Below are positions 1 through 19,167 of a DNA stretch of 52,382 bases, in pieces. The stretch lies in the NCBI GenBank assembly GCA_051744805.1, contig JBNJDK010000005.1:1-52382 (forward strand), in the 5' to 3' direction. Within the stretch, counting starts at the first letter, position 1. Each line of letters begins with the position of its first letter. The position numbers and the translations under genes are program-made. The notes beneath the pieces are model-generated. The model worked only from the letters and a program-made list of their open reading frames with translations, did no database searches and was not told the DNA's origin. Source of the stretch: Bacillota bacterium (GTDB taxonomy: Bacteria > Bacillota > Halanaerobiia > Halanaerobiales > DATFIM01).

Positions 1-699
1 AATACAAATATTTCATTAAAAAATATTGAAAAATTAATTAATAAATTAAAGGGAGAAAATCAAATTATAGAATTTACTAATGGGAATGTAAAAAGTTATT
101 TACATATAAAAAACTATAATAGTTTAAAAGAAGAGATTCTTAAGTTATTAAATAATTTTCATCAGAAATATTCACTCCGAATTGGATATCCAAAAGAAGA
201 ATTGAGAAAAAAGATTTTTATAAATTTAAACAAAAAAGAATTTGATCAATTAATTTCTAATTTGAAAAATAAAAATAAGATAAAAACTGAAGGATCAAAA
301 CTAGCTTTAAAAGAATTTGAAATAAAATATAATTCCAGACAAAAAGAAATCAAAAATTCTATTATTGATATTTTTAAAGATAATTTTATGCCTCCTACCA
401 AAGATGAAATACCTGTAAAATTTGATAATGAAAAAGAAGCATTAGAAGTCTTTCAGGCCATTGTCAATGAAAGTTTATTAAAAAAAGTTGACCATAAATT
501 ATATTTCCATAGAGATACAATCGATAAGGCTGAAGAATTATTAAAAAATTATTTAAAAGAAAATAAATCAATAGAGTTAAGTGAATTTAGAGATTTACTT
601 GAAAGCAGTCGAAAATATGCTTTACCTTTATTAGAATATTTTGATCAAAAAGATTATTTAGTTCGAGAAGGGGATAAGAGAAAACTAAATAAGCAATAA
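1..699 (+). CDS. selB: Selenocysteine-specific elongation factor SelB, C-terminal winged-helix region (5' partial)
   Basis: Frame is open from base 1. Contains FHQKYSLRIGYPKEELR and the WH4 SECIS-binding motif FRDLLESSRKYALPLLEYFD. Adjacent to tRNA-Sec. Confidence 0.93.
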   Translation, partial: NTNISLKNIEKLINKLKGENQIIEFTNGNVKSYLHIKNYNSLKEEILKLLNNFHQKYSLRIGYPKEELRKKIFINLNKKEFDQLISNLKNKNKIKTEGSKLALKEFEIKYNSRQKEIKNSIIDIFKDNFMPPTKDEIPVKFDNEKEALEVFQAIVNESLLKKVDHKLYFHRDTIDKAEELLKNYLKENKSIELSEFRDLLESSRKYALPLLEYFDQKDYLVREGDKRKLNKQ

Positions 700-764
700 T
701 AAAATATGGAAATAAATTTGAAAAATTATTTAATTTTGTTTAAAATGGTAATAATGTAAGGCAT

Positions 765-790
765 AAAAAATCTCCTTATAATAAAGGAGT
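765..790 (-). terminator. Intrinsic terminator downstream of tRNA-Sec
   Basis: CTCCTT (772-777) / AAGGAG (784-789) hairpin followed on the minus strand by ATTTTTT. Confidence 0.5.
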
Positions 791-814
791 AAGTGGAAGT
801 TTTATAGAATTATA

Positions 815-913
815 TGGCGGGAATGTGTGGGAATCGAACCCACCACAGACAGGACCGCCTGCCTGCCACTGGATTTGAAGTCCAGGGTGCCCACCTTGGG
901 CACAGCCACTCCC
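815..913 (-). tRNA. selC: tRNA-Sec (anticodon UCA)
   Basis: Minus strand folds to a 6-bp D stem GTGCCC/GGGCAC, anticodon arm CTGGA-CTTCAAA-TCCAG, 9-bp variable arm, T arm GTGGG-TTCGATT-CCCAC, G discriminator and encoded CCA. Confidence 0.96.
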
Positions 914-927
914 ATATCACTTTCATA

Positions 928-956
928 ATTATAATATATTTATATTAAAATGTAAA
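928..956 (-). promoter_or_regulatory. Sigma-A-type promoter for selC
   Basis: TTTACA-17 nt-TATAAT on the minus strand, ending 14 nt before the tRNA 5' end. Confidence 0.65.
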
Positions 957-965
957 CCATTTCAA

Positions 966-3692
966 ATGAAAAATAATATTTTCGGGAGGTTGATAATTAT
1001 TAGTAGTCAGGAATTTTATAAAATGAATATAAATAAAATTAAAGAGTTTTTAAAAGTTGATAAAGATAAAGGATTATCAAATAAAGAAGCAAATAAACGA
1101 TTAAAAAAATATGGTAAAAATAAATTAAAAAAGTCTAAAGGTATTTCAGCTTACGAAGTTTTTATTGATCAATTTAAAGATATAATTGTTATTTTACTTT
1201 TAGCAGCTTCAATTATTGCATTTTTGATTGGAGATTATGTCGAAGGGGTGGCTGTTTTAGCAGTTATTTTAATAAATGCTATTTTTGGATTTATAACTGA
1301 ATATAATGCTGAAAAATCCTTAGAAGCTTTAAAAGAAATGGTTTCTCTTAAAGCAAAAGTTCTTAGAGATGGAAAATTAAAAGAAATTGATGCTGAAAAA
1401 GTAGTTCCTGGAGATATAATGATTCTTGATGAAGGAGATAGAGTTAGTGCAGATGGAAGATTACTTGAATCTGACAAATTAAATGTAAATGAATCTGTTT
1501 TGACCGGTGAAGCTGAAACGGTCTCTAAAGATTATTCTGCAAAAATTGAAAGTTATACTCCTTTAGCAGAAAGAGAAAATATGGTATATATGGGTACATC
1601 TGTAACTAGAGGTAATGGAGTTGTTTTAGTAACCTCTACAGGTACTGAAACTGAAATGGGACAAATTAGTAATCTTTTAGACAAAACGGAAAGTGATAAA
1701 ACTCCTCTTGAAGACCGTCTGGATACTATGGGGAAAGCTCTTGTAAAATTAACTTTAATAATTGCTGTAATAGTAACTGGAATTGGAATTTTGGTTGGAA
1801 AACCAGTTGTAGAAATGTTAAAAACAGGAATAGCTTTAGCTATAGCTGCTGTTCCAGAAGGTTTACCTATTGTAGCAACAATTACTCTGGCAGTTGGTAT
1901 GAAAAAAATGGTTAAAAATAATGCACTTGTACGGCGATTACCTGCTGTTGAAACTTTAGGTTCAACCACTATTATTTGTACAGATAAAACTGGTACTATT
2001 ACTGAAAATCAAATGACACTTAGAAATATATATTTAAGTAATAAGGATATTAAAATTAGTGGAAGAGGTTATAAACCTGAAGGAGAATTTTCTTTAGAAA
2101 AGGGAGGAGATATTTCTTCGAATTTACAGGAAGATTTATCACTATTTTTGAAAGCAGCTTCACTTTGTAGTAATGCGACTTTAACGAAAGAAAAAGATAA
2201 TTGGAAGATTATTGGTGATCCAACTGAAGGTGCTTTGGTTACTGCAGCTAAAAAGAATGGTTTTGATAAAGAAGAAATGGAAAAAAATAATTATGAGAGG
2301 TTAGAAGAAATTCCTTTTAGATCAGAAGAAAAATATATGGCAGTTTCTTATCAGAATGAGAATAAAGAAAATTTTGTGTTTGTTAAAGGAGCACCATCTG
2401 TAGTATTTGAAATGTGTAAATACGAATTAGTTAATGGTGAAAAAGTTGAATTAACAGAAAAAAGAAGAGAAGAATTGAGTAAAAAGAATAATGAAATGGC
2501 GAAAAAAGGACTTCGTTTATTGGCAGTAGCTTATAATAAAGGAAATAAAGCAGAATCTGAAAAAGAAATCAAAAATACAATTAATGATGGTCTGGTTTTT
2601 GCAGGTTTAGCAGGAATTATGGATCCGCCACGAAAAGAAGTAGTTTCTTCTATTAAAGAGGCACAAACTGCTGGTATAGTTACAAAAATGATTACAGGTG
2701 ATCAAAGTGACACAGCTTTATCTATTGCAGAAAAAGTTGGTATTCAAGATATTAATAAAGGTTCAATTTCTGGCCAGGAAATAGATAATATGACTGAAGA
2801 AGAATTAGGCGAAAGTATTGAAAATAATTCTGTTTTTTCAAGAGTTTCACCTGAAAACAAATTACAAATCATTAATTCATTGAATCAAAAAAATGAAATT
2901 ACGGCAATGACAGGTGATGGAGTAAATGATGCTCCGGCTTTAAAAAAGGCTGATATTGGTATTGCAATGGGTAAGCGCGGTACTTCTGTAGCTAAAAGTG
3001 CTTCAGATATGGTTTTGTTGGATGATAGTTTTAGCACAATTGTTAAAGCTATTAAAGAAGGAAGAGTTATTTTTGATAATATTCAAAAGTTTATTTACTA
3101 TCTTTTTTCCAGTAATCTAAGTGAAATTATTTTTATTTTTTTAGGAATAGTTTTACAGGTTCCTATGCCTTTACTGGCATTACAAATTTTATGGCTTAAT
3201 CTGATAGTTGATGTTTTTCCAGCTCTATCACTTGGATGGGAAAGTGAAGAAGAAAATATTATGAAAAGACCACCTCGTGATCCAGATAAATCAATTCTTA
3301 CTAATAAGTTTAAGAAAAAAATATTATTTCATAGTACTATAATTGCTTTAGGACCTCTAATTACTTTTCTTATTGTATTAAATAGTGGTCATTCAATAGT
3401 ATTAAGTAGAACAGTGAGTTTTGCAGTACTTTCTTTTACTCAATTATTTCATGTTTTTAATGCAAGACGAAAAAATGGATTTGGGTTTGATAAATCAATA
3501 TTAAAAAATCATTATTTATGGCCAGCAATAGCTTTGAGTATATTTTTTCAGCTTATTGCTATTTATAATCCTTTTTTGCAAAATATATTATCTACTGAAG
3601 CAATACCACTTGCTATGTGGCCAGGAATCTCACTTGGATTTATTATTCCTATAATTATAATCCAAATTTTAAATATAAAAAATAATAACTAG
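966..3692 (+). CDS. Cation-transporting P-type ATPase (type IIA, Ca2+-like); start uncertain (966 ATG, 996/999 ATT or 1023 ATG)
   Basis: PEGL, DKTGT phosphorylation site, LTGEA actuator variant, KGAP, MITGD and [17 protein letters not shown] motifs; multiple TM segments. Confidence 0.93.
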
Positions 3693-9061: not shown

Positions 9062-11683
9062 ATGAAAAAACGGCCACTGGCTAACATTATGGAAACAAAA
9101 TTTAAAAAATTAGTTTTGGTATTTTTTATATTCTTTACTGCAATGTTAATTATTGGAGCTTTTCTTTTATATAATCATTTTTATGAAAGTGCTAAAAATG
9201 ATGTATATAATGACATAAATTTTTATTTTATGGAACTGGATAATAATTTTTCAGTGATGGAAAATAGAGTGAATGATATTTTTAAAGAAGAGTTGAATGA
9301 TATCTATAATTCTTATAATAATGATTTTAATGTTGAAAAAGAAATTGTTAGTATCGAAAATAGGTTAACAAATATAGAAGCTTTAAATAATAATGTTGAA
9401 ATTGATGATTTGAATTACTATTTAATATCTAAAAACGGAGAAATTATTGAAAGCAGTTATGAAGAAGATTTAGGTCTTGATTTATCTGAAGATGACGAAA
9501 TATGGGGTAAATTAAGTTCTTTAAATAATGGAGAAGTTTTTCTGGATTCCTTTGATGATGAAAAAAGAAGCAATGATGTTAATATATATTCATATTTAAA
9601 ATTAGATAATGGAAATATATTTGAACTGGGACTATCTTTTTCCAATATAAATTCCATTATAAAAGATCAATTAAATTATTTATTAAGTGATAAAAAAACA
9701 AATATAACATTATATACTGAGGGTTATACCCCTTATTTTAATGATGGAAATAATTTAAATGATAATGAAAAAATAATATTTCAGGAGTCCATTAGTCAAA
9801 ATAAAACTATTGAAAAAAATGCAGGTTTTTTTGCTAAAAATTATTATAGAGGCTGGGAAAATAATTATGGTAATAGATTTGTAAAAGTTCAAGTCAAATA
9901 TAATTTATACAAAAATGCTTTATATATTTTATTGTTAATATTTATTTTTGTTTTAGGTTTTCAATTATTTCTTCATTATAGTTTCAAAGAAATTGTTGCT
10001 AGTGTGACAGGTCCTATTAGAAATTTATCTGAAAAAATGAATAATTTTACAATAAAAGAAAATATGAATTTTAATTTAAAAACTTCGGATATTAAAGAAA
10101 TTAATGATATTCAAGATAATTTCAAAGATATGATAGAAGAAGTAAATGCAAATTATGAACAATTAGAAGCATATAATAATGAAATTATAAATAAAAATGA
10201 AAGATTAAATGAAATTAATAAAGACTTAGATAAAAATAAAAGGAAATATAAAAATTTATTTAATAATATGTTAGATGGTTTTGCTTATTATAAAATTATT
10301 TATAATGATAAAATGGAAGCTATAGATTATCAATTAATTGAAGCAAATGAAGCTTTTAAAAATTTATTTAATTTGGATTCAGTCGAGAATTTAGAAAAAG
10401 ATTTTGAAGATTATTTTCCTATTTCAAAGAAAATATTTTTAAATAAATATAATGAAATAATAAAGGGCAAAAAAAATAATTTTCAGTTTGAAAAATATTT
10501 TTCAGATAAAGATCGCTGGCTTAATATAAATATATTTAGTACTTATAAAGGTTATTTAGCAACAGTGATATCAGATATAACAGAATTAAAAGAATCAAAG
10601 AGAGAATCAGAAAGATTAAGTACCAATCTCGAAAAAATCATTTCGCTAACTTCAGCTTTAGCAACTAATAATCTAGGAGAAAATAAATTTTTGCAAAGGT
10701 TATTAAAAACAGCAGTTGAGGTTATACCTGAAGCAGATTATGGTACAGTATATAAAAATGAAAATGGAAGTGTTAAATTTATTGATGCGATTGGACATGA
10801 TTTTGAAAAGTTTAAAAATCTATCTTTAGATAAAAAATATTTTTATAATAATAATGAAGAAATAGAAGTTATAGAAAATGTAATGAGAAAAAATGAAAGT
10901 AAATTTGATGATAAAAATCTTCAAATTTTGAAAGAAGGACAAAAGGAACTCAAAGAAACAATGACTTTTGATCTTATAGTAGATAATGAAATTGTTGCAG
11001 GTTTAAATTTAGATATAAAATTACAAAGTAAAGAAAAATTTGATGATTATTCTAAAAGATTATTTAAATCTTTAAAAAATATATCTACTTCATTTTATAA
11101 AATGAGAAAATATAATATATTACAAAATAAGTTTACTAAAGAATTAATTCTTTCTATAATTAGAATGTTAGAAATTCATGATTTATATACTAGAGGTCAT
11201 TCTGAAAAAGTAGCTAATTTATCAAAAATGATTGCAAAACAATTAAATCTTTCAGAAAAAAAGATGAATGATGCTTACTGGGCAGGAATGGTTCATGATA
11301 TTGGTAAAATACTTATTCCAGATTATATTTTAAATAAAAAATCTTCTTTAAAGGATAATGAATTTGAAATAATAAAAAAACATTCTGTCTGGGGTTATCA
11401 GACCTTATCAGCTACTGAAGATTTGCAAAATATAGCTAGATTTGTTTTATTTCACCATGAAAGGTGGGATGGAGAAGGTTATCCTCGTGGACTTAAAGGA
11501 GAAGAAATACCTTTAATTTCAAGAATATTAGCTGTTGCTGATGCCTGGGATGCAATGACAACTGATAGAGCTTATAGAAAAGCCCTTTCAAAAGAAGAAG
11601 CCATAAAAGAATTAAAAGATAATAAAGGAAAACAATTTGATCCAAAGATTGTAGATGCGTTTTTAAAAGGCCACTTATCATAA
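9062..11683 (+). CDS. Membrane-anchored HD-GYP phosphodiesterase (extracytoplasmic sensor, HAMP, PAS, GAF-like, HD-GYP)
   Basis: Two TM segments; HAMP-like TGPIRNL...EIN; PAS ending DITE; HDLYTRGHS, HDIGKI, HHERWDGEGYP and AVADAWDAM. Confidence 0.9.
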   Translation: MKKRPLANIMETKFKKLVLVFFIFFTAMLIIGAFLLYNHFYESAKNDVYNDINFYFMELDNNFSVMENRVNDIFKEELNDIYNSYNNDFNVEKEIVSIENRLTNIEALNNNVEIDDLNYYLISKNGEIIESSYEEDLGLDLSEDDEIWGKLSSLNNGEVFLDSFDDEKRSNDVNIYSYLKLDNGNIFELGLSFSNINSIIKDQLNYLLSDKKTNITLYTEGYTPYFNDGNNLNDNEKIIFQESISQNKTIEKNAGFFAKNYYRGWENNYGNRFVKVQVKYNLYKNALYILLLIFIFVLGFQLFLHYSFKEIVASVTGPIRNLSEKMNNFTIKENMNFNLKTSDIKEINDIQDNFKDMIEEVNANYEQLEAYNNEIINKNERLNEINKDLDKNKRKYKNLFNNMLDGFAYYKIIYNDKMEAIDYQLIEANEAFKNLFNLDSVENLEKDFEDYFPISKKIFLNKYNEIIKGKKNNFQFEKYFSDKDRWLNINIFSTYKGYLATVISDITELKESKRESERLSTNLEKIISLTSALATNNLGENKFLQRLLKTAVEVIPEADYGTVYKNENGSVKFIDAIGHDFEKFKNLSLDKKYFYNNNEEIEVIENVMRKNESKFDDKNLQILKEGQKELKETMTFDLIVDNEIVAGLNLDIKLQSKEKFDDYSKRLFKSLKNISTSFYKMRKYNILQNKFTKELILSIIRMLEIHDLYTRGHSEKVANLSKMIAKQLNLSEKKMNDAYWAGMVHDIGKILIPDYILNKKSSLKDNEFEIIKKHSVWGYQTLSATEDLQNIARFVLFHHERWDGEGYPRGLKGEEIPLISRILAVADAWDAMTTDRAYRKALSKEEAIKELKDNKGKQFDPKIVDAFLKGHLS

Positions 11684-11699
11684 ATAGTGGTCTTTTTTT
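11665..11699 (+). terminator. Intrinsic terminator overlapping the HD-GYP stop codon
   Basis: AAAAGGCCACT / AGTGGTCTTTT stem with a T7 run. Confidence 0.7.
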
Positions 11700-11713
11700 G
11701 TTTTATAGTAAGA

Positions 11714-11779: not shown

Positions 11780-13774
11780 ATGTTAAAAATTTATAAAGGA
11801 CCTACAGGATCAGGTAAAACTTCAATTTTAGAAGAAAAATATAGAGAAAATGCTTTAAAAGTTGGTACTGAGGAAAATATTGTATTTTTAAAAAGTGCCA
11901 GTAGTGTTAATAATTGGAGAAATAATATTGATTTAAAGTATTTAGGTCCCCTTAATATATTTACTTATTTTGGATTTATTCAAAAAGAAATTAGAGATAA
12001 ATGGATTTATATTGAGAAAAATTTAGAAGGGTTAAGAAAAAAGGTTGAACCTACTTTTATGAATGTAGAAACTGCACATTTTGTTATGAGTAAATTTGTT
12101 GAAAAAAAACGAAAAAATAATGAAATTTTTGATTATATTAATGCAACTTCTTCACAAATAGCCGTACAATTAATTGATAATTTGAATTATGGAGCAATGA
12201 ATTGTCTTAATTTTGAGGAAATGGAAAAAAGATTACTTGATTGGGCTAATAAAGAAGAACAAAAACATAAAATTTTTAAAGAATCAATTAATATAATGAA
12301 AATTTTTAGAGAGTTTTGTATAAAGAACAGAGTTATTGATTACTCACTATTAGTTGATTTATATAATAAAATTCTGCTACCTAATGAAAATTATTTGAAT
12401 AAATTAAGAAATGAATTTTTCTATCTTTATGTTGATGATTTAGAGAAAACAGTACCAGCTGCTCAAAAGTTATATGAAATTTTAAATAATAATACAAAAA
12501 AAACTTATATGACTTTTAATCCTGAAGCTGGAATTAATAGATTTTTTGGAGGTAATCCTGTTTTAGCTAAAAAACAATTTTTAAATAAGGGACAAATAAT
12601 AGAATTTAGTAAATCTTTTACCTCATCAGAAGAATCTAGAGAATTAGCTAATGGTTTTAAAGAAAGAGTTTTAGGTAATAAAAACTCTTTAAAAACAAAA
12701 TATATTAAAGGTGAAATTGATACAGAATTAAGAGGAGATATGTTTATTAAAACTGCTAAAAAAGTTGTTGAATTAATAAAAAGCGGAATTAAACCTGGTG
12801 AAATTGCTCTGATTGCTCCTAATATAGATAAAGTAATGGAATTTACTTTAGAACATTATTTTGAAAATAAAGGTTATAATGTATATAATTTTAAAAATTC
12901 GAAGAGGTTAGTTGATATTCCTTTTGCACAGGCCCTTATCACATTAACTTTATTAACAAATCCTGACTGGAATATTAATATAGATTATTCTTCTTTACAT
13001 CAAACTATTAGTCTGCTTCTAGACCTTGATCCAGTAAGAAGTGGTTTGATTACAGAAGAAATTTTTAAAAATGCATATGTTTTACCTGAAATTAATAATC
13101 TTGCTTTAAGAGAGCGAGTGGGATTTAACAGCGCAGAAAAATATGACCATTTAAGAAATTGGGTTGAAGAAAAGAAAAATAGGGAGATAGAAGTTGCTCA
13201 TTTTTTCCAATTAGTTTTCGGAGAGCTTTTAGCTCCTTTATCACCAAGTGATGAAGATATTTTGGCATGTAGACAGATAATTGAATCAGTAAAAAAGTTT
13301 AAAAATGTAGTTGAAAGTTTTAAAGATTTTAATCAAAAAGAATTAGGAAAAGATTTTATAGAAATGATTTATAATGGAACAATAGCTGCTGAGGTTCTTT
13401 ATCAAAATGAACATACTGATGATGAAATAATATTAGCTACTCCCTATAAATTTCTTCAAAATCCTCAAATTGATTCAGTAAAATATATATTTTTATTAGA
13501 TATTTCCAGTAATAATTGGCTCAGAAGTATAGCAAAAGAATTATCTAATCCATATATTTTTTCTCCGCAATGGAAAAATGAAAGAAATTGGGATGATGAA
13601 CTTGATCAAAATTTAAGAAAAATACAATTAGTTGAGTTTTTTCAAAGTATAATAAGTAAATCTCAAGAAGGTTTGTATCTAAATGATAGTTACCTAAATA
13701 GTCAGGGTTGGGAACAAGAGGGGAAATTATATGATTGGCTGCAATTAAATAATGAGGTGATAGTAAATGATTGA
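11780..13774 (+). CDS. Degenerate SF1/UvrD-fold P-loop protein (AddB/RecC-like partner subunit without a nuclease domain)
   Basis: ATG 11780 after AGGAAGGAAG; N-terminal Walker A GPTGSGKT; IDYSLLV and LYVDDLE at UvrD LDFDDL/DEAQD positions; GIKPGEIALIAP; motifs V and VI not recognisable; stop overlaps the next start. Confidence 0.7.
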   Translation: MLKIYKGPTGSGKTSILEEKYRENALKVGTEENIVFLKSASSVNNWRNNIDLKYLGPLNIFTYFGFIQKEIRDKWIYIEKNLEGLRKKVEPTFMNVETAHFVMSKFVEKKRKNNEIFDYINATSSQIAVQLIDNLNYGAMNCLNFEEMEKRLLDWANKEEQKHKIFKESINIMKIFREFCIKNRVIDYSLLVDLYNKILLPNENYLNKLRNEFFYLYVDDLEKTVPAAQKLYEILNNNTKKTYMTFNPEAGINRFFGGNPVLAKKQFLNKGQIIEFSKSFTSSEESRELANGFKERVLGNKNSLKTKYIKGEIDTELRGDMFIKTAKKVVELIKSGIKPGEIALIAPNIDKVMEFTLEHYFENKGYNVYNFKNSKRLVDIPFAQALITLTLLTNPDWNINIDYSSLHQTISLLLDLDPVRSGLITEEIFKNAYVLPEINNLALRERVGFNSAEKYDHLRNWVEEKKNREIEVAHFFQLVFGELLAPLSPSDEDILACRQIIESVKKFKNVVESFKDFNQKELGKDFIEMIYNGTIAAEVLYQNEHTDDEIILATPYKFLQNPQIDSVKYIFLLDISSNNWLRSIAKELSNPYIFSPQWKNERNWDDELDQNLRKIQLVEFFQSIISKSQEGLYLNDSYLNSQGWEQEGKLYDWLQLNNEVIVND

Positions 13775-15992
13775 ACTTAGAAAAGGGCAGGATGAAGTTG
13801 CTGAATATAGAGAAGGTTATATGGCTGTTCCTGCTGTGCCGGGAGCAGGGAAAACAACTGTTCTTGCCTATCTTGCTGCTGATTTAATAGCTGAAAACTA
13901 TATTGATAATGGAAAATTGCTTATAGTAACTTACATGAATTCAGCGGTTGCTAATTTTAGAAATAGAATAGGAAATTATCTTGAAGAGAGAGGTCATTCA
14001 AGAAATAGAGGTTATGAAGTTCGAACTTTACATTCACTTGCTTTGAATATATTAAAAGAAAAGCCAGAATATATGTTAATAAATGATGAGTTTAGAATAA
14101 TTGATCCTCAAAAAAAGGGGAGAATTATTGGAGAAGTAATTGATGGTTGGTTAAGTGCTAATCCTGAAAGAAGTCTTAAACATTTTAGTTATCACCCTGC
14201 AGAAGGTGGCTATAATAGAGCGGAAGAACGATGGAAAGAAAAAGATTTTTATAAATTTATAAAATCTATGATTTCATATTTAAAATTATATAATTTTAAT
14301 AGAAGTAAAGCAATTTCTCTTAAAAACAGCTTGAAAAATGACTCATATTTAAGCTGGGCATTAGAAATTTTTGCTAATTATGATCGTTTATTACACCAGG
14401 AAGGTATGCTTGATTTTGATGATTTGATTATCCAGGCTTTGAACTTGTTAAAAAATGATGAAAAATTGCAAAAAAGATTAAGTAATAAATTCACTTATGT
14501 TTTTGAGGATGAAGCACAGGATTCTAACCATGTATTAAGTGAAATTTTGGAACTACTTGCTGGAAAAAATGGAAATTTAGTTAGAGTTGGTGATTCTAAC
14601 CAATCTATTATGGGAACCTTTACTTCAGCTGATCCTGAAGTTTTTCGTTCTTTTATTGAAAGAGATAGGGTTATCAGGAAAAATATTCTTTATTCCAGCA
14701 GAAGTACCATCGATATTATTAACCTGGCAAATCATTTGGTAAATTGGGTAGTAGAAAAACATCCAATTGATAAATGTAAAGAATCTTTAGAAGAAAAGTA
14801 TATTAAAGAAGTTCCTCCAGATGATCCAGCTCCAAATCCAGTTACAGAAAATTACACAATAGGACATAAAACATTTTCAGATTCAGAAAAAGAAATTAAA
14901 AATATTGCTGAACAGGCAGTTAAGCATGCTAATAGTAATCCAAATAATACTATAGGAATTTTAGTTCCTTCTAATTATACTGTTGATGACCTGGCCGGAT
15001 ATCTTTCCAAGTTTGATGTAGAGTATGAAAAGGTTAGTAATAGGTATGAGGATAAATTGACAATTATAAAAAATTATCGCTCATTAATAAATTTTTTGGC
15101 TGAACCACATAATAATAATTATTTTTCGGTTTGTCTAAATGAAGTTTTTCTACCTAAATATTTTGATGATATAGAAATTAATAATTCAATTAAAAATATT
15201 TTTTCTAATTTTAATTTAGAAGATATATTTTATCCTATTGGTGGAGAAGAAAAAACAAAAAATGAATTATTAGATATTATTCCTGATAAAAATAGAAATA
15301 AATTTAATGAAATGCTTGAGGAAATTTCTTATTACTTAGATGCAAGTATTAAACTTCCTCCAGATGAATTAATTTTATTTTTAGCTGAGAGAATGGAGTT
15401 AAAAGAAGAAGAATTAGCAATTGTCCAGAATATGGCTTTGAATATCAAAAGTGAGTTAGATTTACATCCTAATTGGAAATTAAAAGATATTGCAGATGAA
15501 TTTACTAGATTAGAGGAAAGTTTTGAAAGATTTGCAAAAAAAATATATGAAAGAAAAGGATTTGAACCTAAAAAAGGAATTATAACTATAACAACTGTTC
15601 ATAAAGCAAAAGGTATGGAGTGGGATACAGTTTTTTTAACTTATCTTACAGATGATTATTATCCTTCAACTATAGATGATAAATTTAGAGGTGAATATTA
15701 TTATTTAAAAGATGAATATAGTAATCCAAAAGCTATGGCAAAAGCTGAGCTAGAATATTACTTAAATGAAGAAAAATCAAAAAATCCTAAAAACATTGCC
15801 AGAATAGAACATATTAGTGAAAGATTACGTTTATTATATGTAGGAATTACAAGAGCAGAAAAAAATTTATTTTTGTCTGCCCATAAAGAAATAATCTATG
15901 ATAATGGGAGCAAAAAGGTAAATGAAGCTTTACCTTACAGGGTATTAAAAAAATTTATAAATAGAGAGAAGGCTAAATATGAAGATCAATAG
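13767..15992 (+). CDS. ATP-dependent SF1A (UvrD/PcrA-like) DNA helicase
   Basis: Q motif, AVPGAGKT, RTLHSLA, DEAQD, VGDSNQSI, SSRST, TVHKAKGMEWD and ERLRLLYVGITRA. Confidence 0.92.
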   Translation: MIELRKGQDEVAEYREGYMAVPAVPGAGKTTVLAYLAADLIAENYIDNGKLLIVTYMNSAVANFRNRIGNYLEERGHSRNRGYEVRTLHSLALNILKEKPEYMLINDEFRIIDPQKKGRIIGEVIDGWLSANPERSLKHFSYHPAEGGYNRAEERWKEKDFYKFIKSMISYLKLYNFNRSKAISLKNSLKNDSYLSWALEIFANYDRLLHQEGMLDFDDLIIQALNLLKNDEKLQKRLSNKFTYVFEDEAQDSNHVLSEILELLAGKNGNLVRVGDSNQSIMGTFTSADPEVFRSFIERDRVIRKNILYSSRSTIDIINLANHLVNWVVEKHPIDKCKESLEEKYIKEVPPDDPAPNPVTENYTIGHKTFSDSEKEIKNIAEQAVKHANSNPNNTIGILVPSNYTVDDLAGYLSKFDVEYEKVSNRYEDKLTIIKNYRSLINFLAEPHNNNYFSVCLNEVFLPKYFDDIEINNSIKNIFSNFNLEDIFYPIGGEEKTKNELLDIIPDKNRNKFNEMLEEISYYLDASIKLPPDELILFLAERMELKEEELAIVQNMALNIKSELDLHPNWKLKDIADEFTRLEESFERFAKKIYERKGFEPKKGIITITTVHKAKGMEWDTVFLTYLTDDYYPSTIDDKFRGEYYYLKDEYSNPKAMAKAELEYYLNEEKSKNPKNIARIEHISERLRLLYVGITRAEKNLFLSAHKEIIYDNGSKKVNEALPYRVLKKFINREKAKYEDQ

Positions 15993-16788
15993 TCTGGATG
16001 AACTTTATTTTAGTCAATTATCACTAACAGTTTATGATAATTGTCCACTTAAATTTAGGAGACGTTATTTAGATGGACTCTATTGGCCTGCTGACTGGAG
16101 TGAAAATTTTTCACAAAAAGAAATTGTAGAAAAAGGAAAAGAATTTCACCTTTTAGCTCAACGATATTATGATAGAGGAGAAATTATAGAAAAAGATTAT
16201 ATTTCTGAAGAGTTATTGAAGTGGTTTAATAAATTAAAAAAATTTCGGCCTTATAACAATACAGATAAATTTTCTCCGGAACATGAGTTAAGAATTAATA
16301 CAGAGAAAATAAAATTAGTAGCTAAATATGACCTCTTATATATTGACAAAAATAATAATGAATTAATCATTTATGACTGGAAAACTAATAAAAAAAGATT
16401 TATTCAAAACAAGTTAAAAGATAATTTGCAAACTAAGGTTTATCTTTATGTTCTTGCAGAAGCGGGGTCATTTTATTATTTGAAAGATAATTTTGATTTA
16501 AATAAGATGAGTATAATTTATTGGAATCCGCGTTATCCTAAGCAGACTATTAAGATTAGTTATAATAAAGAAAAATTCAGAAAGGATAAGAAGTTTTTAA
16601 AAAATAAGATTAAAGAAATTAAAAATCTTGATTATAATGATTTTGAGAAAACTGATAATAAAAAGGCTTGCAAATTTTGTGAATATAGACCTATTTGTTC
16701 AGGGAAAAAACCTGAAACAATTGAAGTGGGAGATGACGATATTGACCTTGAAATTGACTGGGATAATATCGATGAAATGTCTTTTTAA
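15979..16788 (+). CDS. Stand-alone PD-(D/E)XK (RecB/AddB/Cas4-like) nuclease with a probable 4Fe-4S staple
   Basis: S..SL..Y..CP..F, G..FH, KYDLL, IYDWKT, QxxxY (QTKVY) and C-terminal CKFCEYRPIC; overlaps the helicase stop. Confidence 0.9.
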   Translation: MKINSLDELYFSQLSLTVYDNCPLKFRRRYLDGLYWPADWSENFSQKEIVEKGKEFHLLAQRYYDRGEIIEKDYISEELLKWFNKLKKFRPYNNTDKFSPEHELRINTEKIKLVAKYDLLYIDKNNNELIIYDWKTNKKRFIQNKLKDNLQTKVYLYVLAEAGSFYYLKDNFDLNKMSIIYWNPRYPKQTIKISYNKEKFRKDKKFLKNKIKEIKNLDYNDFEKTDNKKACKFCEYRPICSGKKPETIEVGDDDIDLEIDWDNIDEMSF

Positions 16789-16821
16789 TATATTAAAAGT
16801 GAAATTTCAGGGAGAGATTTT

Positions 16822-19167
16822 ATGAAAGTAGAAATGAAAAATAAGAATCAAAAAATTCCAGATTGGTTATTAAGTGAAGTTAATAATAAACTTTTGGCAA
16901 AACTTCTTTATAACAGAGGAGTTGATACAAAATTTAAGTTAAAAAAATTTTTATATCCGGCTGAATATATACCAACTTCACCTAAAGAGTTTGAAAATAT
17001 GGAAAAGGGTATTAAGAGAATTATTAAAGCAGTTGAGAAAAATGAAAAAATTGTGATTTATGGAGATTATGATGTAGATGGAGTTACCTCAACTGCTATT
17101 TTAGTTTCTTTTTTAAGAAAATTAGATGCAAAAATAGATTATCATATCCCTGACAGATTTGATGAAGGTTATGGTATGAATAAAAATGTTATAAAAAAAA
17201 TGGTTGAAGATGATGTTGACCTAATTTTAAGTTGTGATTGTGGGATTTCCAATTTCGATGAAATAAAATTGGCAAAAAACCTGGGAATGGATGTTATAGT
17301 CACTGACCATCATGATTTACCAGAAAATTTGCCACCAGCTGATATTATACTTACTCCGAAGTTTTTTGCTAAAGAACACCAGGCTCATGATTTACCAGGA
17401 GCAGGCATGGTTTATTATTTGGTAAAAGGAATAATGAATTTTATTAATAAAAACAAATATTACAAAAATTTATTTGAATATAAGATTAAAGCAGATTATT
17501 ATTTGGATTATTTGGCTCTGGCTATAGTTGCTGATGTTGTGCCTTTAAAAGGAGAAAACCGTTTTTTGTTACAAAAAGGTCTTAAGAATTTAAAAACTAC
17601 TGATAAAAAAAGTTTGAATGAATTATTTGAGATGAGTGGCATAAATAAAGAATTAATTAGTGAAGAGGATATTGCATTTCGAATTGCTCCAATTATTAAT
17701 GCAGCTGGTAGGATAGAAGATGCTAAAATAGCAGTAGAAATGTTATTAACTAAAGATAAAATAAAGGTTAAAAAATTATCTAATAAATTGATTAAAATTA
17801 ATAGCCGAAGAAAAGAAATACAGGAAAAAATAATTAAAGAAGCAGAAGAAATATTAAAAAGTGAAGAAGATTTTCAAAATAAAGGGATAATATTATATCA
17901 ACCTCACTGGCATGAAGGACTTTTAGGTATTGCTGCTGGCCGTTTAACAGAAAATTACAAAATTCCTGCTTTTCTTATGACTTTAAAAGAAGATAAAGGT
18001 ACAATTACTGGTTCTGCACGTTCTATACCTGAAATTCATGTTAATAACAAACTTAAAAATGTAAAAAATCATTTATTGAAATCAGGTGGACATGCTGGTG
18101 CAGCAGGTTTTTCACTTAAAAGAGACCAATATACAATTTTTAAAAAGAAATTAGCTTCTTTATTAGAAAATGATTTAAGTGAAATTTCTAGGGAAGAAAC
18201 TATAAAAGTGGATGCTCAGCTTAAATTAGGTGATATTGATCTAGATATGTATAATGATATTCGAAAGTTAGCTCCGTTTGGAGAAGAAAATGAAAAACCA
18301 TTATTTATGACCAATAATTGTCAGCTTTTACAAAGTAGAAATTTTGGTGATAATAACCATAAAAGATTAATTTTAAAACAAAATAATAATAAAATTACTG
18401 CTATCTGGTGGTGGGCTGGAGAACAAAAAATACCTAAAAATTTAGACTTAATATATCATCTTGATATTAATAGATTTAGAGGACGAGAAAACATACAATT
18501 AGTAATTAAAGAAGTTATAGATTCTGATTATAGTTATAAATTTTCTACTAAAGATGATTTTACAAAATTTATTAAAATTAAAGATTATAGAAATTGGCAA
18601 AATAATAAAAAGTTAAAAAATGATATATATAATTTTGAAAATGCAGTTTATTATCAAGAAGGAAATAGTAAGATTTATTTTGATCAGATAATAGATCGAT
18701 ATGGAATAGGAGAAAATGACAAGTTAGTTTTAATTTCTTTTCCTCCTTCTCTTTCAATTTTATATGATTTAATTTATAATAATGAACCTTCAGAAATAAT
18801 TTTAGCTTTTGATAAAAATAAATTAAAAGAAAACGAAAATTTTTTAAAAAAAGTAATGTCTTTTCTTAAATATATTTTAAAAGAAAAAAATGGGTATTTT
18901 AAAATTCCTAATATTGCTGTTTTAACAGAAGAATTAGAAGTTACAATAAAAGTTACATTAAAATATCTAGAGGCTTCTGGATATATAGAGTTAGAAAAGA
19001 TTAATGAAAATAATTATTTTATAAAACGTGGAGGAAAAACTGATAAAGGTAAGAAAAGAATATATAAGAAAAGATTGAAATCATTATTAAAAGAAAGTAA
19101 ATCATTCAAAAATTTTTTATATAAAACCAATTCAGAAGAGATATTAAGATATGTTAAAAATAGTTAG
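16822..19167 (+). CDS. recJ: Single-stranded-DNA-specific exonuclease RecJ
   Basis: YGDYDVDG, DCG, TDHH, ADVVPL.GENR, P.INAAGR, GSARS, GGHAGAAG and PFG..N.KP; long C-terminal extension. Confidence 0.95.
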   Translation: MKVEMKNKNQKIPDWLLSEVNNKLLAKLLYNRGVDTKFKLKKFLYPAEYIPTSPKEFENMEKGIKRIIKAVEKNEKIVIYGDYDVDGVTSTAILVSFLRKLDAKIDYHIPDRFDEGYGMNKNVIKKMVEDDVDLILSCDCGISNFDEIKLAKNLGMDVIVTDHHDLPENLPPADIILTPKFFAKEHQAHDLPGAGMVYYLVKGIMNFINKNKYYKNLFEYKIKADYYLDYLALAIVADVVPLKGENRFLLQKGLKNLKTTDKKSLNELFEMSGINKELISEEDIAFRIAPIINAAGRIEDAKIAVEMLLTKDKIKVKKLSNKLIKINSRRKEIQEKIIKEAEEILKSEEDFQNKGIILYQPHWHEGLLGIAAGRLTENYKIPAFLMTLKEDKGTITGSARSIPEIHVNNKLKNVKNHLLKSGGHAGAAGFSLKRDQYTIFKKKLASLLENDLSEISREETIKVDAQLKLGDIDLDMYNDIRKLAPFGEENEKPLFMTNNCQLLQSRNFGDNNHKRLILKQNNNKITAIWWWAGEQKIPKNLDLIYHLDINRFRGRENIQLVIKEVIDSDYSYKFSTKDDFTKFIKIKDYRNWQNNKKLKNDIYNFENAVYYQEGNSKIYFDQIIDRYGIGENDKLVLISFPPSLSILYDLIYNNEPSEIILAFDKNKLKENENFLKKVMSFLKYILKEKNGYFKIPNIAVLTEELEVTIKVTLKYLEASGYIELEKINENNYFIKRGGKTDKGKKRIYKKRLKSLLKESKSFKNFLYKTNSEEILRYVKNS

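Follow-up and report, generated by a model that had tools for sequence, protein, structure and literature searches.

The four co-directional genes g1, g2, g3 and recJ, located in the window (the whole stretch of DNA analysed, 52,382 nucleotides from a member of the Halanaerobiales), encode, as we judge with slightly more confidence than doubt, one DNA-end-processing system that follows the AddAB plan with a different division of labour, and this system probably is a 5'-strand resection machine. An earlier note, made from the sequence alone, had read the locus as a split helicase-nuclease joined by RecJ; all parts of that interpretation accessible to computation held, except for the postulated anti-correlation with AddAB.

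Organisation of the locus

ORF calling and reading of the sequence place all four genes on the plus strand (Table 1). Base-by-base inspection of the junctions and folding bore out the arrangement described earlier, i.e. four same-strand genes with overlaps, a 33-nt gap and an upstream terminator. The most likely start of g1 is the ATG at 11780 with the RBS aggaagga ahead of it, the mechanical open reading frame beginning with GTG at 11687. g1 and g2 overlap by 8 nt (g2 ATG at 13767 after gaggtg; g1 stop TGA at 13772-13774), g2 and g3 by 14 nt (g3 ATG at 15979; g2 stop TAG at 15990-15992), and g3 is separated from recJ by 33 nt (g3 stop TAA at 16786-16788; recJ ATG at 16822 after gggagag). The terminator is the 5' limit of the unit: its stem-loop at 11665-11696, with U7 next to it, folds at -12.9 kcal/mol (z -3.69), a stability reached by 0 of 200 shuffles. 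A consensus scan did not pick it up, probably because the loop exceeds the limit of 8 set in that scan. The neighbours of the unit, an HD-GYP gene upstream and thrC downstream, form a housekeeping context, and domain annotation of the flanking genes revealed neither mobile nor defence genes beside it.

Table 1 Features of the g1-recJ unit and its upstream boundary
Feature	Position	Strand	Description
Intrinsic terminator	11665..11703	+	11-bp stem, 10-nt loop, U7; belongs to the upstream HD-GYP gene
g1	11780..13774	+	664-aa SF1A helicase-fold partner
g2	13767..15992	+	741-aa UvrD/PcrA-type SF1A helicase
g3	15979..16788	+	269-aa stand-alone PD-(D/E)XK nuclease
recJ, linked type	16822..19167	+	781 aa; DHH, DHHA1 and OB core intact
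Linked-RecJ C-terminal domain (residues 566-781)	18517..19164	+	no Pfam family; HMM built from 27 sequences

Helicase-fold proteins and nuclease

Against Pfam, g1 gave a single, sub-threshold UvrD-helicase match (2.5e-4); no NCBIfam model matched it, the addB model included, and the domain search revealed no nuclease domain. Its AF2 model (pLDDT 87, pTM 0.83) was matched by Foldseek to UvrD/PcrA (E ~1e-20), to AddB (4cej_B, TMq 0.64) and to AdnB (9np6_B, TMq 0.68), and hhalign aligned g1 with g2 across 600 columns (probability 98.6), the motif losses being visible in the alignment. The Walker A motif and the acidic pair of motif II are retained and motifs III to VI are lost, a pattern which is the one described in passages of PMC3321194 for the N-terminal half of AddB, where a UvrD-like four-subdomain fold has lost the helicase motifs save Walker A and the aspartate of motif II. 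The label 'degenerate helicase' given earlier to g1 is thus only partly appropriate: motifs III to VI are gone, but the Walker A motif is canonical (GPTGSGKT) and kept in 234 of the 253 (92%) full-length family members examined, which suggests that the role of g1 may go beyond that of a passive scaffold.

The motor is presumed to be g2, a 3'-5' helicase with intact motifs I to VI (Pfam UvrD-helicase 7.5e-48, UvrD_C 2.9e-26), in which the domain search likewise detected no nuclease domain. Across 22 sequences GxGKT, EDEAQDS, GDxNQ, R312 of motif IV, H612 with K615/G616, and R696-A697 are invariant, and S313, beside R312, is conserved in at least 90% of them. The protein stays under every equivalog cut-off (pcrA, 153 vs 911 bits; addA, 112 vs 708).

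g3 (Pfam PDDEXK_1, 3.5e-28) is a stand-alone, four-Cys iron-staple nuclease of the Cas4/AddB type, and Pfam confirms the earlier claim that the nuclease is a separate polypeptide and that neither helicase-fold protein carries one. All catalytic and Cys residues are present, C22, C231, C234, C240, H57, E101, D118, D133, K135, Q151 and Y155 being invariant in 17 sequences from at least four phyla; the protein closes with an acidic tail (residues 250-269) whose last letters are DWDNIDEMSF. Foldseek related the AF2 model (pLDDT 84) to ACE1, the AdnA nuclease domain, Exo5, Cas4 and the AddB nuclease, the last of which is assigned the 5' strand in parts of PMC3321194. The motifs quoted in the earlier note were recovered in all three proteins: the ending S....G.EQEG.L in g1, AVPGAGK in g2, FSQ..L.....CP and QTKVYLYVLAE in g3.

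The linked RecJ

The linked RecJ exceeds the cut-off of TIGR00644 (559 vs 397 bits) and contains the motifs DVDG, VTDHH and GGHAGAAG. A second recJ resides on contig C10 of the same genome. At least two recJ copies were counted in 36 of the 38 genomes of the order carrying g1/g3, and at most one in 32 of the 34 non-carriers, the two remaining ones showing, respectively, a recJ interrupted by an in-frame stop and a single recJ gene in split pieces. All five Chloroflexota carriers tested also possess two. A branch of the RecJ tree (SH-aLRT 99) separates 29 linked RecJs, which stem from two phyla and include the one of this genome, from 23 unlinked ones. When cyanobacteria were added, one paralog from each of four two-RecJ genomes joined the linked side (SH-aLRT 97), and one RecJ clustered with the module in a cyanobacterium did not fall into the linked clade, forming a long branch apart from it. 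The HMM of the C-terminal domain matches 29/29 linked RecJs (11 from Halanaerobiales, 18 from Chloroflexota), 0/23 unlinked and 0/9 cyanobacterial (module-type) RecJs; the domain is a candidate for docking. An extra paralog, a clade and a C-terminal domain of its own argue for RecJ as a part of the system, as had been proposed, rather than a chance neighbour.

Distribution and gene order

The genomes of the order that carry g1 are the same as those that carry g3 (38 of 72), and in 37 of them the coordinates put a recJ directly behind g3. The order g1-g2-g3-recJ is found in all ten loci fetched, with differing flanking genes; only these four are common to the ten loci, mutS, mutL and uvr genes being linked in none. 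The carriers track families within the order and are not scattered strain by strain.

The gene set is also present in Chloroflexota, Latescibacterota, Gemmatimonadota and cyanobacteria. Among 80 loci surveyed in other phyla, g2 follows downstream in 52 of the 69 long enough to show it and g3 in 37 of 60; recJ accompanies the full trio in 18 of 36, and the trio loci without recJ in the fetched flank come mostly from Latescibacterota and Gemmatimonadota. Where g1 stood alone in other phyla, g3 was encoded elsewhere in the genome (5/5). The neighbourhood survey thus agrees with the linkage that the earlier note expected, the trio genes adjoining in distant phyla, and so does co-occurrence, both in the order and in cyanobacteria, where the three proteins co-occur in 50 of 51 g1-positive genomes.

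The resemblance to uncharacterised cyanobacterial proteins, to which the earlier note had pointed, is real: relatives of g1 and g3 exist there, the g3 orthologs scoring 100-250 bits against the g3 profile. In nine of ten cyanobacterial loci g1 stands alone, and one cyanobacterium has all four genes clustered, in the altered order recJ-g1-g3-g2. Picocyanobacteria carry a g1-g2 fusion; a protein of 1291 aa consists of a g1-like part (2-617, i-E 6.7e-68) and a g2-like part (638-1264), and a 213-aa g3-like gene comes next. A g1-like part within a frame of 1283-1308 aa was detected in 18 of 101 cyanobacteria, 17 of which have a g3-like ORF on the same strand within about 3.5 kb.

Relation to AddAB

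Contig C155 of this genome carries a fragment comprising the C-terminal part of addB and the N-terminal part of addA. The GC content there (0.278) is like that of the remaining genome. In the order, AddB-like nuclease-bearing proteins are encoded by 5/38 carriers versus 13/34 non-carriers; 33 of the 38 carriers have no other AddB-like gene, and 21 of the 34 non-carriers have neither system. RecC is absent from all 72 genomes, the sole match being an AddB. Five of 11 g1-positive Chloroflexota possess PDDEXK_1 proteins of at least 1000 aa. The anti-correlation with AddAB hoped for earlier is only partial, and the system does not strictly replace AddAB.

Mechanism and alternatives

Judging from folds and motifs, the four proteins may assemble into a machine in which g2 would act as a 3'-5' SF1A motor on the 3'-ended strand and g1, a partner whose helicase fold is inactivated and whose nucleotide-binding site is conserved, would serve as a scaffold and possibly sense a strand as well, in the manner of AddB's N-terminal half. 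The iron-staple nuclease g3 would take the displaced 5'-ended strand, as the nuclease domains of AddB and AdnA do, and the dedicated RecJ paralog, recruited via its private C-terminal domain, would digest the 5'-ended strand in the 5'->3' direction. Since a counterpart of the AddA nuclease, the 3'-strand cutter, is missing, the 3' tail should survive without a Chi-type switch and would be handed to RecA loaders. Such resection could serve break repair, the degradation of incoming linear DNA, or both.

The second of these tasks leads to the alternative that the main role is defence, the system shredding linear or poorly replicating foreign DNA and, where the host has an Argonaute, providing it with small DNA guides. 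RecBCD and AddAB degrade foreign DNA elsewhere, and RecBCD does both defence and repair, so that a defence role would be compatible with repair. PADLOC reports generic matches for g3 (Cas4) and g2 (GajB), but its system models match neither g1 nor RecJ. Parts of PMC12094033 report most cyanobacteria to be without RecBCD and AddAB and the source of guide DNA to be unknown, and in a screen of Synechococcus elongatus PCC 7942, as presented in passages of PMC10653904, loss of cas4, uvrD, recJcy or Synpcc7942_0992 mimics Argonaute loss, improving RSF1010 maintenance and natural transformation; these phenotypes concern plasmids and transformation, not repair. The genes cas4, uvrD and recJcy are look-alikes and putative counterparts of g3, g2 and the linked RecJ. 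pxcA is 0991 in PCC 7942, so 0992 is numbered adjacent to it (PMC11360081), and in a genome with a g1 protein that matches a record of S. elongatus PCC 11801 letter for letter, g1 is the hypothetical gene beside pxcA; there, the other neighbour of pxcA is cobU, and two PDDEXK_1 proteins and three UvrD-like genes are encoded. The housekeeping neighbourhood and a distribution following families speak against a primarily defensive role, which we regard as unlikely.

UvrD and RecJ are an established strand-excision pairing, and the genes could accordingly form an excision or gap-processing module with g3 trimming flaps, the helicase working with RecJ as in mismatch repair or in the way that RecQ and RecJ enlarge gaps or process stalled forks. 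RecQ-RecJ is named in passages of PMC3321194 as an alternative initiator of the RecF pathway, and the presence of the system beside AddAB-like genes here and in other genomes would fit a non-redundant job. A motor with a dead-helicase partner and an iron-staple nuclease is, however, the signature of end processing (AddAB, AdnAB, RecBCD), and with mutS, mutL and uvr unlinked in the ten loci compared this reading appears to us rather improbable.

More doubtful still is a diverged AddAB with a split AddB, retaining the canonical Chi-regulated mechanism with two nucleases and recJ as a passive neighbour. g1 and g3 do resemble the N-terminal half and the nuclease of AddB, and most carriers have no other AddB-like gene, nor any of the 72 genomes a RecC; but the 3'-strand nuclease that defines AddA is missing from g2, the addB and addA models fail on g1 and g2, the motor gene parts the supposed AddB halves, recJ is a co-inherited special paralog, and an AddAB-like pair, as the fragment on C155, co-exists in the genome. 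That four functionally unrelated genes form an operon by accident of descent is hardly credible: synteny inside one order could be inherited without common function, but the genes are also linked in four or more other phyla, where the flanks differ and the gene order is altered once, g1 and g2 are fused in picocyanobacteria, and genome-level co-occurrence persists where the genes are dispersed.

Comparison with known systems

The earlier note had named a match to a characterised complex as an outcome that would speak against its reading. The end-processing system proposed here does not map onto such a complex: no equivalog model in the Pfam/NCBIfam searches matched the set, and the literature searched contained no complex corresponding to g1-g2-g3-recJ. 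Hudaiberdiev et al. (2017; PMC5704561) predicted an operon of UvrD and a pfam12705 Cas4-like protein, 'mostly Clostridiales', non-defence and possibly involved in DNA repair, which, going by the relevant passages, probably is the g2-g3 pair; RecJ has 0 occurrences in that paper, and those passages do not mention a dead-helicase partner. The closest solved structure to g3 is ACE1 (9iac_A, Foldseek E 7e-8), of similar size and with the same Fe-S staple; in sequence, it is a remote relative (profile E-value 1.6e-4, 24.5 bits), and according to parts of PMC12094033 it is encoded with Argonaute and without a helicase partner.

Mycobacterial AdnAB, a heterodimer of two SF1-fold subunits, provides the best fold matches of g1 (AdnB) and g3 (nuclease domain of AdnA), but both its subunits bear a motor-like domain and a C-terminal nuclease (PMC5314763, in part), which neither helicase-fold protein does here. 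In RecBCD, likewise, RecB is an active SF1A motor and its partner RecC, of helicase fold but inactivated, scans the 3' strand (passages of PMC3321194); homologs of RecC and RecD were not found here, and its single nuclease for both strands contrasts with a small separate nuclease plus RecJ. AddAB (RexAB) of Bacillota also has one active SF1A 3'-5' motor, a partner of UvrD-like fold that retains Walker A and the aspartate of motif II and no other motif, and an iron-staple PD-(D/E)XK nuclease with four Cys residues, whose target in AddAB is the 5' strand (PMC3321194, in part). It differs in consisting of two polypeptides instead of three, whereas here the nuclease is unfused from the dead-helicase partner, with the motor gene between their genes, the motor lacks a nuclease, which leaves the 3' strand without an assigned one, the unit includes a dedicated RecJ, and the sequences stay far under the addA/addB model cut-offs.

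The UvrD-RecJ pairing in Deinococcus is a comparable case of resection by a helicase plus RecJ. In the RecF pathway, RecQ and the 5'->3' exonuclease RecJ similarly yield a 3' tail, leaving the 3' strand uncut (PMC3321194, in part). Both pairings are general-purpose and separately encoded, whereas the system described here combines a private RecJ paralog with an AddAB-like core.

Architecture of the locus

The window, with a GC content of about 0.28, corresponds to contig C5 in an assembly of 2.2 Mb and 163 contigs whose completeness is estimated at 97%. Four plus-strand genes had been placed at 11780-19167 in the earlier note, which is borne out by our reading of the open reading frames, and the signature motifs quoted there were all found when the protein sequences were read. 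We refer to these genes as g1 (helicase-fold partner), g2 (UvrD-type motor), g3 (stand-alone Fe-S nuclease) and recJ; the first three form the trio, all four the unit, and genomes with g1 and g3 are called carriers. The genes g1 and g2 overlap by 8 nt and g2 and g3 by 14 nt, with an own ribosome-binding site at each junction, while 33 nt lie between the g3 stop and the recJ start. Judged from the preceding aggaagga, ATG 11780 most likely is the start of g1. The unit is flanked by an HD-GYP gene on one side and thrC on the other; a hairpin at 11665-11696 followed by U7 (11-bp stem, -12.9 kcal/mol, z -3.69) ends the HD-GYP gene, and a consensus scan did not call this terminator, probably because of its 10-nt loop.

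Positions of the unit and of other features discussed in the text (window coordinates unless a contig or locus is named)
Feature	Position	Strand	Remarks
HD-GYP-type gene, 873 aa	9062-11683	+	HD_5 4e-43, weak PAS match; same strand as the unit, terminator between
g1, 664 aa	11780-13774	+	helicase-fold partner
g2, 741 aa	13767-15992	+	UvrD-type motor
g3, 269 aa	15979-16788	+	stand-alone nuclease
recJ	16822-19167	+	linked recJ
Partial AddB-AddA, same genome	C155 (2785 bp), ~1454-2785 and 1-1464	-	AddB C-terminal 444 aa, then AddA N-terminal 488 aa
g1-g2 fusion, 1291 aa, picocyanobacterium	L171:4930-8805	-	g1-like 2-617, UvrD helicase of g2 type 638-1264
213-aa PDDEXK_1 g3-like nuclease gene	L171:4296-4937	-	overlaps end of 1291-aa fusion gene
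Second small Cas4-like PDDEXK_1 protein, 265 aa, S. elongatus-type genome	G134:C1:2009933-2010637 (L183:1417-2214)	-	Cas_Cas4 29.7 bits, above cut-off; missed by the g3 profile

Expression of the unit is hinted at by a salt-lake metatranscriptome (run X1), in which short contigs match parts of g2, g3 and recJ with 0-3 mismatches and one 228-nt contig, corresponding to 16652-16879, bridges the gap between g3 and recJ; these matches are of low depth, leave much of the stretch uncovered and may reflect DNA carry-over. Two further runs (X2, X3) yielded fragments of 18-22 nt only. One X1 contig joins 17851 to 18942, leaping over 1090 nt within recJ; it most likely is an assembly chimera or the sequence of another organism, because its shorter side comprises just 20 nt.

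The motor, its partner and the nuclease

The g2 product is a complete SF1A helicase of the UvrD/PcrA type (Pfam UvrD-helicase 7.5e-48, UvrD_C 2.9e-26), whose motif residues are invariant or almost so among 22 orthologs, and the Pfam scan gave no PDDEXK match and no nuclease domain. It is no housekeeping helicase according to the family models, all of which it fails (pcrA 153 bits against a cut-off of 911, rep 142 against 951, uvrD 129 against 1144); a separate 739-aa UvrD/PcrA-like gene of this genome lies on contig C90.

The g1 product has no NCBIfam family and only a sub-threshold Pfam match, and no NCBIfam model fits the cyanobacterial members either, which NCBI names 'recombinase family protein'. 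Its AF2 model (pLDDT 87) shows a four-subdomain SF1A fold, matching UvrD/PcrA (E ~1e-20), AddB (TMq 0.64) and AdnB (TMq 0.68), and a profile-profile alignment to g2 extends over 600 columns with a probability of 98.6 and 14% identity. In this alignment Walker A (GPTGSGKT) and the two aspartates (DD) of motif II are retained, whereas motifs III, IV, V and VI are gone; 234 of 253 full-length members of the family keep Walker A. The kinship of both g1 and g3 emerged from profiles and fold searches, single-sequence PDB searches having given no meaningful match for either.

The stand-alone nuclease g3 belongs to the PD-(D/E)XK superfamily (PDDEXK_1 3.5e-28; PF12705 99.6 bits against a cut-off of 22). 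Among 17 sequences from several phyla C22, C231, C234, C240, H57, E101, D118, D133, K135, Q151 and Y155 are invariant, and with a D...DxK core, QxxxY, one N-terminal and three C-terminal cysteines the protein conforms to the iron-staple/Cas4 type (PF12705, PF01930). Its model matches the folds of ACE1, the AdnA nuclease domain, Exo5, Cas4 and the AddB nuclease. As a CRISPR-associated Cas4 g3 does not qualify, since it fails TIGR00372, the model of Cas4 proper (27.5 bits, cut-off 65), and is neighboured by helicase-fold genes and recJ instead of cas genes.

Residues 250-269 of g3 (window 16726-16785) make up an acidic, disordered tail, which across phyla has the conserved end ...L(D/E)WDxIxExxF. 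In SSB, an acidic C-terminal tip serves to recruit RecJ and other partners, and by analogy the g3 tail could be a candidate docking peptide.

The linked RecJ

The fourth gene encodes a bona fide RecJ (TIGR00644 558.9 bits, cut-off 396.9), with the Pfam domains DHH, DHHA1 and RecJ_OB and intact DVDG, DHH and GGH motifs. Being encoded beside the trio, we call it linked, as opposed to unlinked RecJs encoded elsewhere. A second recJ of this genome lies on contig C10, and at least two recJ genes are found in 36 of the 38 carriers of the order, the linked one being the extra copy; the exceptions are G049, which is 69% complete and has the linked recJ as its only one, and G055. Among non-carriers of the order, 32 out of 34 have one recJ at most, the other two being G061 and G071, the latter with two recJ pieces of a single gene. 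In G061, a genome without g1 and g3, the second recJ-like stretch (G061:C11:5893-7560, plus strand, 305 bits) contains an in-frame TGA; it may be decaying, left behind by a module that was lost.

In a maximum-likelihood tree of 52 RecJs (IQ-TREE quick search, LG+G4, with skewed composition in many rows), a single branch (SH-aLRT 99) separates 11 linked RecJs from Halanaerobiales and 18 from Chloroflexota from 23 unlinked or sole RecJs of both phyla. All five Chloroflexota carriers examined contain two recJ genes, the unlinked in a frame of 570-596 aa and the linked in one of 773-787 aa. The C-terminal 216 residues of the window RecJ match no Pfam family, and an HMM built for this domain detects 29 of 29 linked and none of 23 unlinked RecJs; the unlinked RecJs of Halanaerobiales are equally long, yet do not match it. 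Because this HMM splits linked from unlinked RecJs, the linked RecJ is a distinct subfamily with a private domain, which we infer to be a docking module.

Co-occurrence and gene order

Named homologs belong to the Halanaerobiales, in which g1 is found in 38 of 72 genomes and g3 (E < 1e-60) in the identical 38. The gene order g1-g2-g3-recJ is kept in ten out of ten fetched loci from four families, with the flanking HD-GYP and thrC genes fully common within the genus only and a weak HD-GYP match at one other locus; by comparison of coordinates, recJ lies immediately 3' of g3 in 37 of the 38 carriers.

Beyond the order, the g1 profile matches 547 clusters (50% identity) at E <= 1e-30, and the best 150 of these measure 288-758 aa, nearly all 600-760, so that none could hold a fused nuclease. 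A homologue search for longer g1 forms returned nothing, which is weak evidence; the fused 1291-aa form came to light by another route. Scanning a one-genome-per-species collection with a non-Bacillota g1 alignment gave at least 586 confirmed g1-matching stretches out of 600 matched. The best 80 of these loci stem from Chloroflexota (mostly Anaerolineae), Latescibacterota, Gemmatimonadota, Handelsmanbacteria and one cyanobacterium. Among these best 80, g2 follows 3' on the same strand in 52 of the 69 loci that extend far enough, g3 in 37 of 60 and RecJ (at least 200 bits) in 19 of 56, corresponding to 18 of 36 loci with the whole trio; the RecJ-linked loci are those of Chloroflexota, and 11 loci have g1 alone. 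When five genomes were searched, three of them with g1 alone or too short a flank in the locus, g3 was found elsewhere in the genome in all five.

Cyanobacteria and the Synechococcus lead

Tallied by hand, full-length g1 is present in 51 and a g3-type gene in 52 of 101 cyanobacterial genomes, with both in 50, g1 only in one and g3 only in two. The genes usually are dispersed (g1 alone in nine out of ten loci), and one cyanobacterium clusters all four in the order recJ-g1-g3-g2 (L168:5458-12584, minus strand), its clustered RecJ being short (596-aa frame), very divergent and on a long unplaced branch of the tree. In 18 of the 101 genomes, all of them small, the g1-like part lies within a frame of 1283-1308 aa, and 17 of these 18 have a g3-like ORF on the same strand within ~3.5 kb. 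The picocyanobacterial representative in the table is a natural fusion of g1 with g2, whose g1-like part covers HMM positions 8-664 of 674 (i-E 6.7e-68) and has a degenerate Walker A (GDLSTNKT); it is the strongest indication that g1 and g2 act as one enzyme. A g3-type match within much longer frames (416-741 aa) is seen in five cyanobacteria (G124, G157, G160, G166, G142), where the nuclease could be fused to another domain or the length could be mere upstream read-through.

Two RecJs are encoded in four of five cyanobacterial genomes tested, and one paralog from each of these four groups with the linked RecJs (SH-aLRT 97), in a position sister to the Chloroflexota-linked group (support 98). 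The linked C-terminal domain was detected by HMM in none of nine cyanobacterial RecJs.

In a published screen in Synechococcus elongatus PCC 7942, RSF1010 maintenance and natural transformation improved on loss of cas4, uvrD, recJcy or Synpcc7942_0992, as they did on loss of ago; PcrA and RecJ are named there as paralogs apart from these (PMC10653904). At L169, a locus whose g1 protein matches a record of S. elongatus PCC 11801 letter for letter, g1 is divergent from an adjoining CemA/PxcA gene with cobU on the other side of the latter; the g1 family has been named automatically as 'cyanobacterial membrane protein, in cluster with PxcA'. The same genome encodes one g2-type UvrD, two RecJs (one of them module-type) and one g3-type nuclease, besides one more small PDDEXK_1 protein and two further UvrD-like genes. 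Several hits of the screen therefore are likely to be components of the module, each gene taken singly being a probable though putative ortholog. As pxcA is Synpcc7942_0991 (PMC11360081), the place of Synpcc7942_0992 beside it argues for this gene as the candidate g1 ortholog; the description of Synpcc7942_0992 as 'PD-(D/E)XK endonuclease-like' (PMC10653904) fits a nuclease better than g1. The S. elongatus species-type genome has two small PDDEXK_1 nucleases, and the 265-aa protein of G134, rather than the g3 ortholog, may be the 'cas4' of the screen. RecBCD and AddAB limit incoming DNA in other bacteria; if the orthology of the screen hits is true, the system restricts incoming DNA together with Argonaute.

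Proposed mechanism and significance

The anatomy, folds and comparative genomics of the unit are established by the observations presented; the strand roles, the tethering of RecJ and the independence from Chi we infer by analogy with AddAB. By homology, g2 would translocate 3'-5' along the 3'-ended strand and power unwinding, with g1, which keeps nucleotide binding, sitting beside it, possibly as a strand sensor. At the fork, g3 would take the 5'-ended strand, as the iron-staple nuclease of AddAB is assigned to the 5' strand, for which a short channel is described that contains this active site and the Fe-S region alone (PMC3321194). RecJ, tethered by its private domain, would processively digest the 5' strand and, no component of the unit being assigned to the 3' strand, a 3' tail would therefore arise without a Chi switch. 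A complex prediction of g2 (residues 1-728) with g3, made with custom alignments and without controls, scored 0.01 and 0.00, which counts neither for nor against an assembly.

Bacterial double-strand-break resection is taught as the work of RecBCD, AddAB or AdnAB, with RecQ-RecJ as back-up. Tentatively, and with somewhat less than even confidence, we propose that the unit, which is widespread in Chloroflexota, Halanaerobiales, Latescibacterota, Gemmatimonadota and cyanobacteria, stands next to RecBCD, AddAB and AdnAB as a fourth major class of machine for DNA-end resection. It would be Chi-independent and 5'-strand-specific, combine a motor, a dead-helicase partner, an iron-staple nuclease and a privately recruited RecJ, and in cyanobacteria constitute the long-missing end processor and source of guide DNA for Argonaute. 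If true, this would account for four seemingly unrelated genes emerging together with ago in the Synechococcus screen, offering a unifying reading for unexplained S. elongatus genetics with bearing on transformation, plasmid maintenance in cyanobacterial engineering and the origin of Argonaute guides. Cyanobacteria mostly are reported to be without RecBCD and AddAB (PMC12094033, PMC5101192), and for them, as for Halanaerobium-type genomes without the classical machines, the unit is a concrete candidate for DNA-end processing, a question which a conserved gene set of defined composition makes testable. An operon of unfused UvrD and Cas4-like genes, 'mostly Clostridiales' and possibly involved in repair, has been noted in passing in a paper that does not mention RecJ (Hudaiberdiev et al. 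2017, PMC5704561). Full-text literature searches, covering subscription journals in part, gave no description of the four genes as one system.

Comparison with known systems

PADLOC gave generic GajB and Cas4 matches only, and we reject a known defence system. Gabija pairs GajB, a UvrD-like helicase, with GajA, an OLD-family ATPase-nuclease; the GajB model matches g2 strongly and g1 marginally (E 9.3e-4), whereas GajA has no match in any of the four proteins.

RecC was found in none of the order's 72 genomes, where the sole match is an AddB. Nuclease-bearing AddB-like proteins occur in 5 of 38 carriers versus 13 of 34 non-carriers, and two single-contig Halanaerobium-type genomes have the trio without AddB. 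The genome under study itself contains AddB and AddA fragments on contig C155, the former with a PDDEXK_1 Fe-S nuclease and its CxxC...C motif; with a GC content of 0.278 this contig resembles the rest of the genome, and it is truncated on either side, with the rest of the two genes missing from the assembly. In an even sample of 101 Chloroflexota, which counts one unpublished and g1-negative genome (G207), a small PDDEXK_1 protein is present, among the matches listed, in 11 of 11 g1-positive genomes, and at least five of these 11 encode, in addition, PDDEXK_1 proteins that reach 1000 aa or exceed it. The strict anti-correlation with AddAB for which the earlier note had suggested looking thus is found neither in the order nor in the Chloroflexota sample, and the complementarity is a tendency, not a rule. 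Because AddAB-like genes coexist with the unit in this genome and in Chloroflexota carriers, we regard it as a machine in its own right rather than a replacement of AddAB.

In its motifs, the partner resembles AddB, whose N-terminal half is described as a UvrD-like fold with the helicase motifs gone except for Walker A and the motif II aspartate (PMC3321194). The same dead-helicase pattern is found in g1, although the addB model TIGR02773 gives no match to it. AddB carries the iron-staple nuclease on the dead-helicase polypeptide, whereas g1 stops after 664 residues and g3 provides the nuclease as a protein of its own. Likewise, the SF1A motor AddA bears at its C-terminus a RecB-type nuclease for cutting the 3' strand, while g2 is without a nuclease and fails the addA model TIGR02785 (112 bits, cut-off 707.65). 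AdnAB combines a motor domain and a C-terminal nuclease in both subunits, whereas both g1 and g2 lack a nuclease domain. AddAB attenuates 3'-strand cutting under the control of Chi, while the unit encodes no 3'-strand nuclease. Compared with these machines, the design is varied in that the nuclease is unfused, the 3'-strand nuclease is gone and RecJ is hard-wired, which predicts resection independent of Chi.
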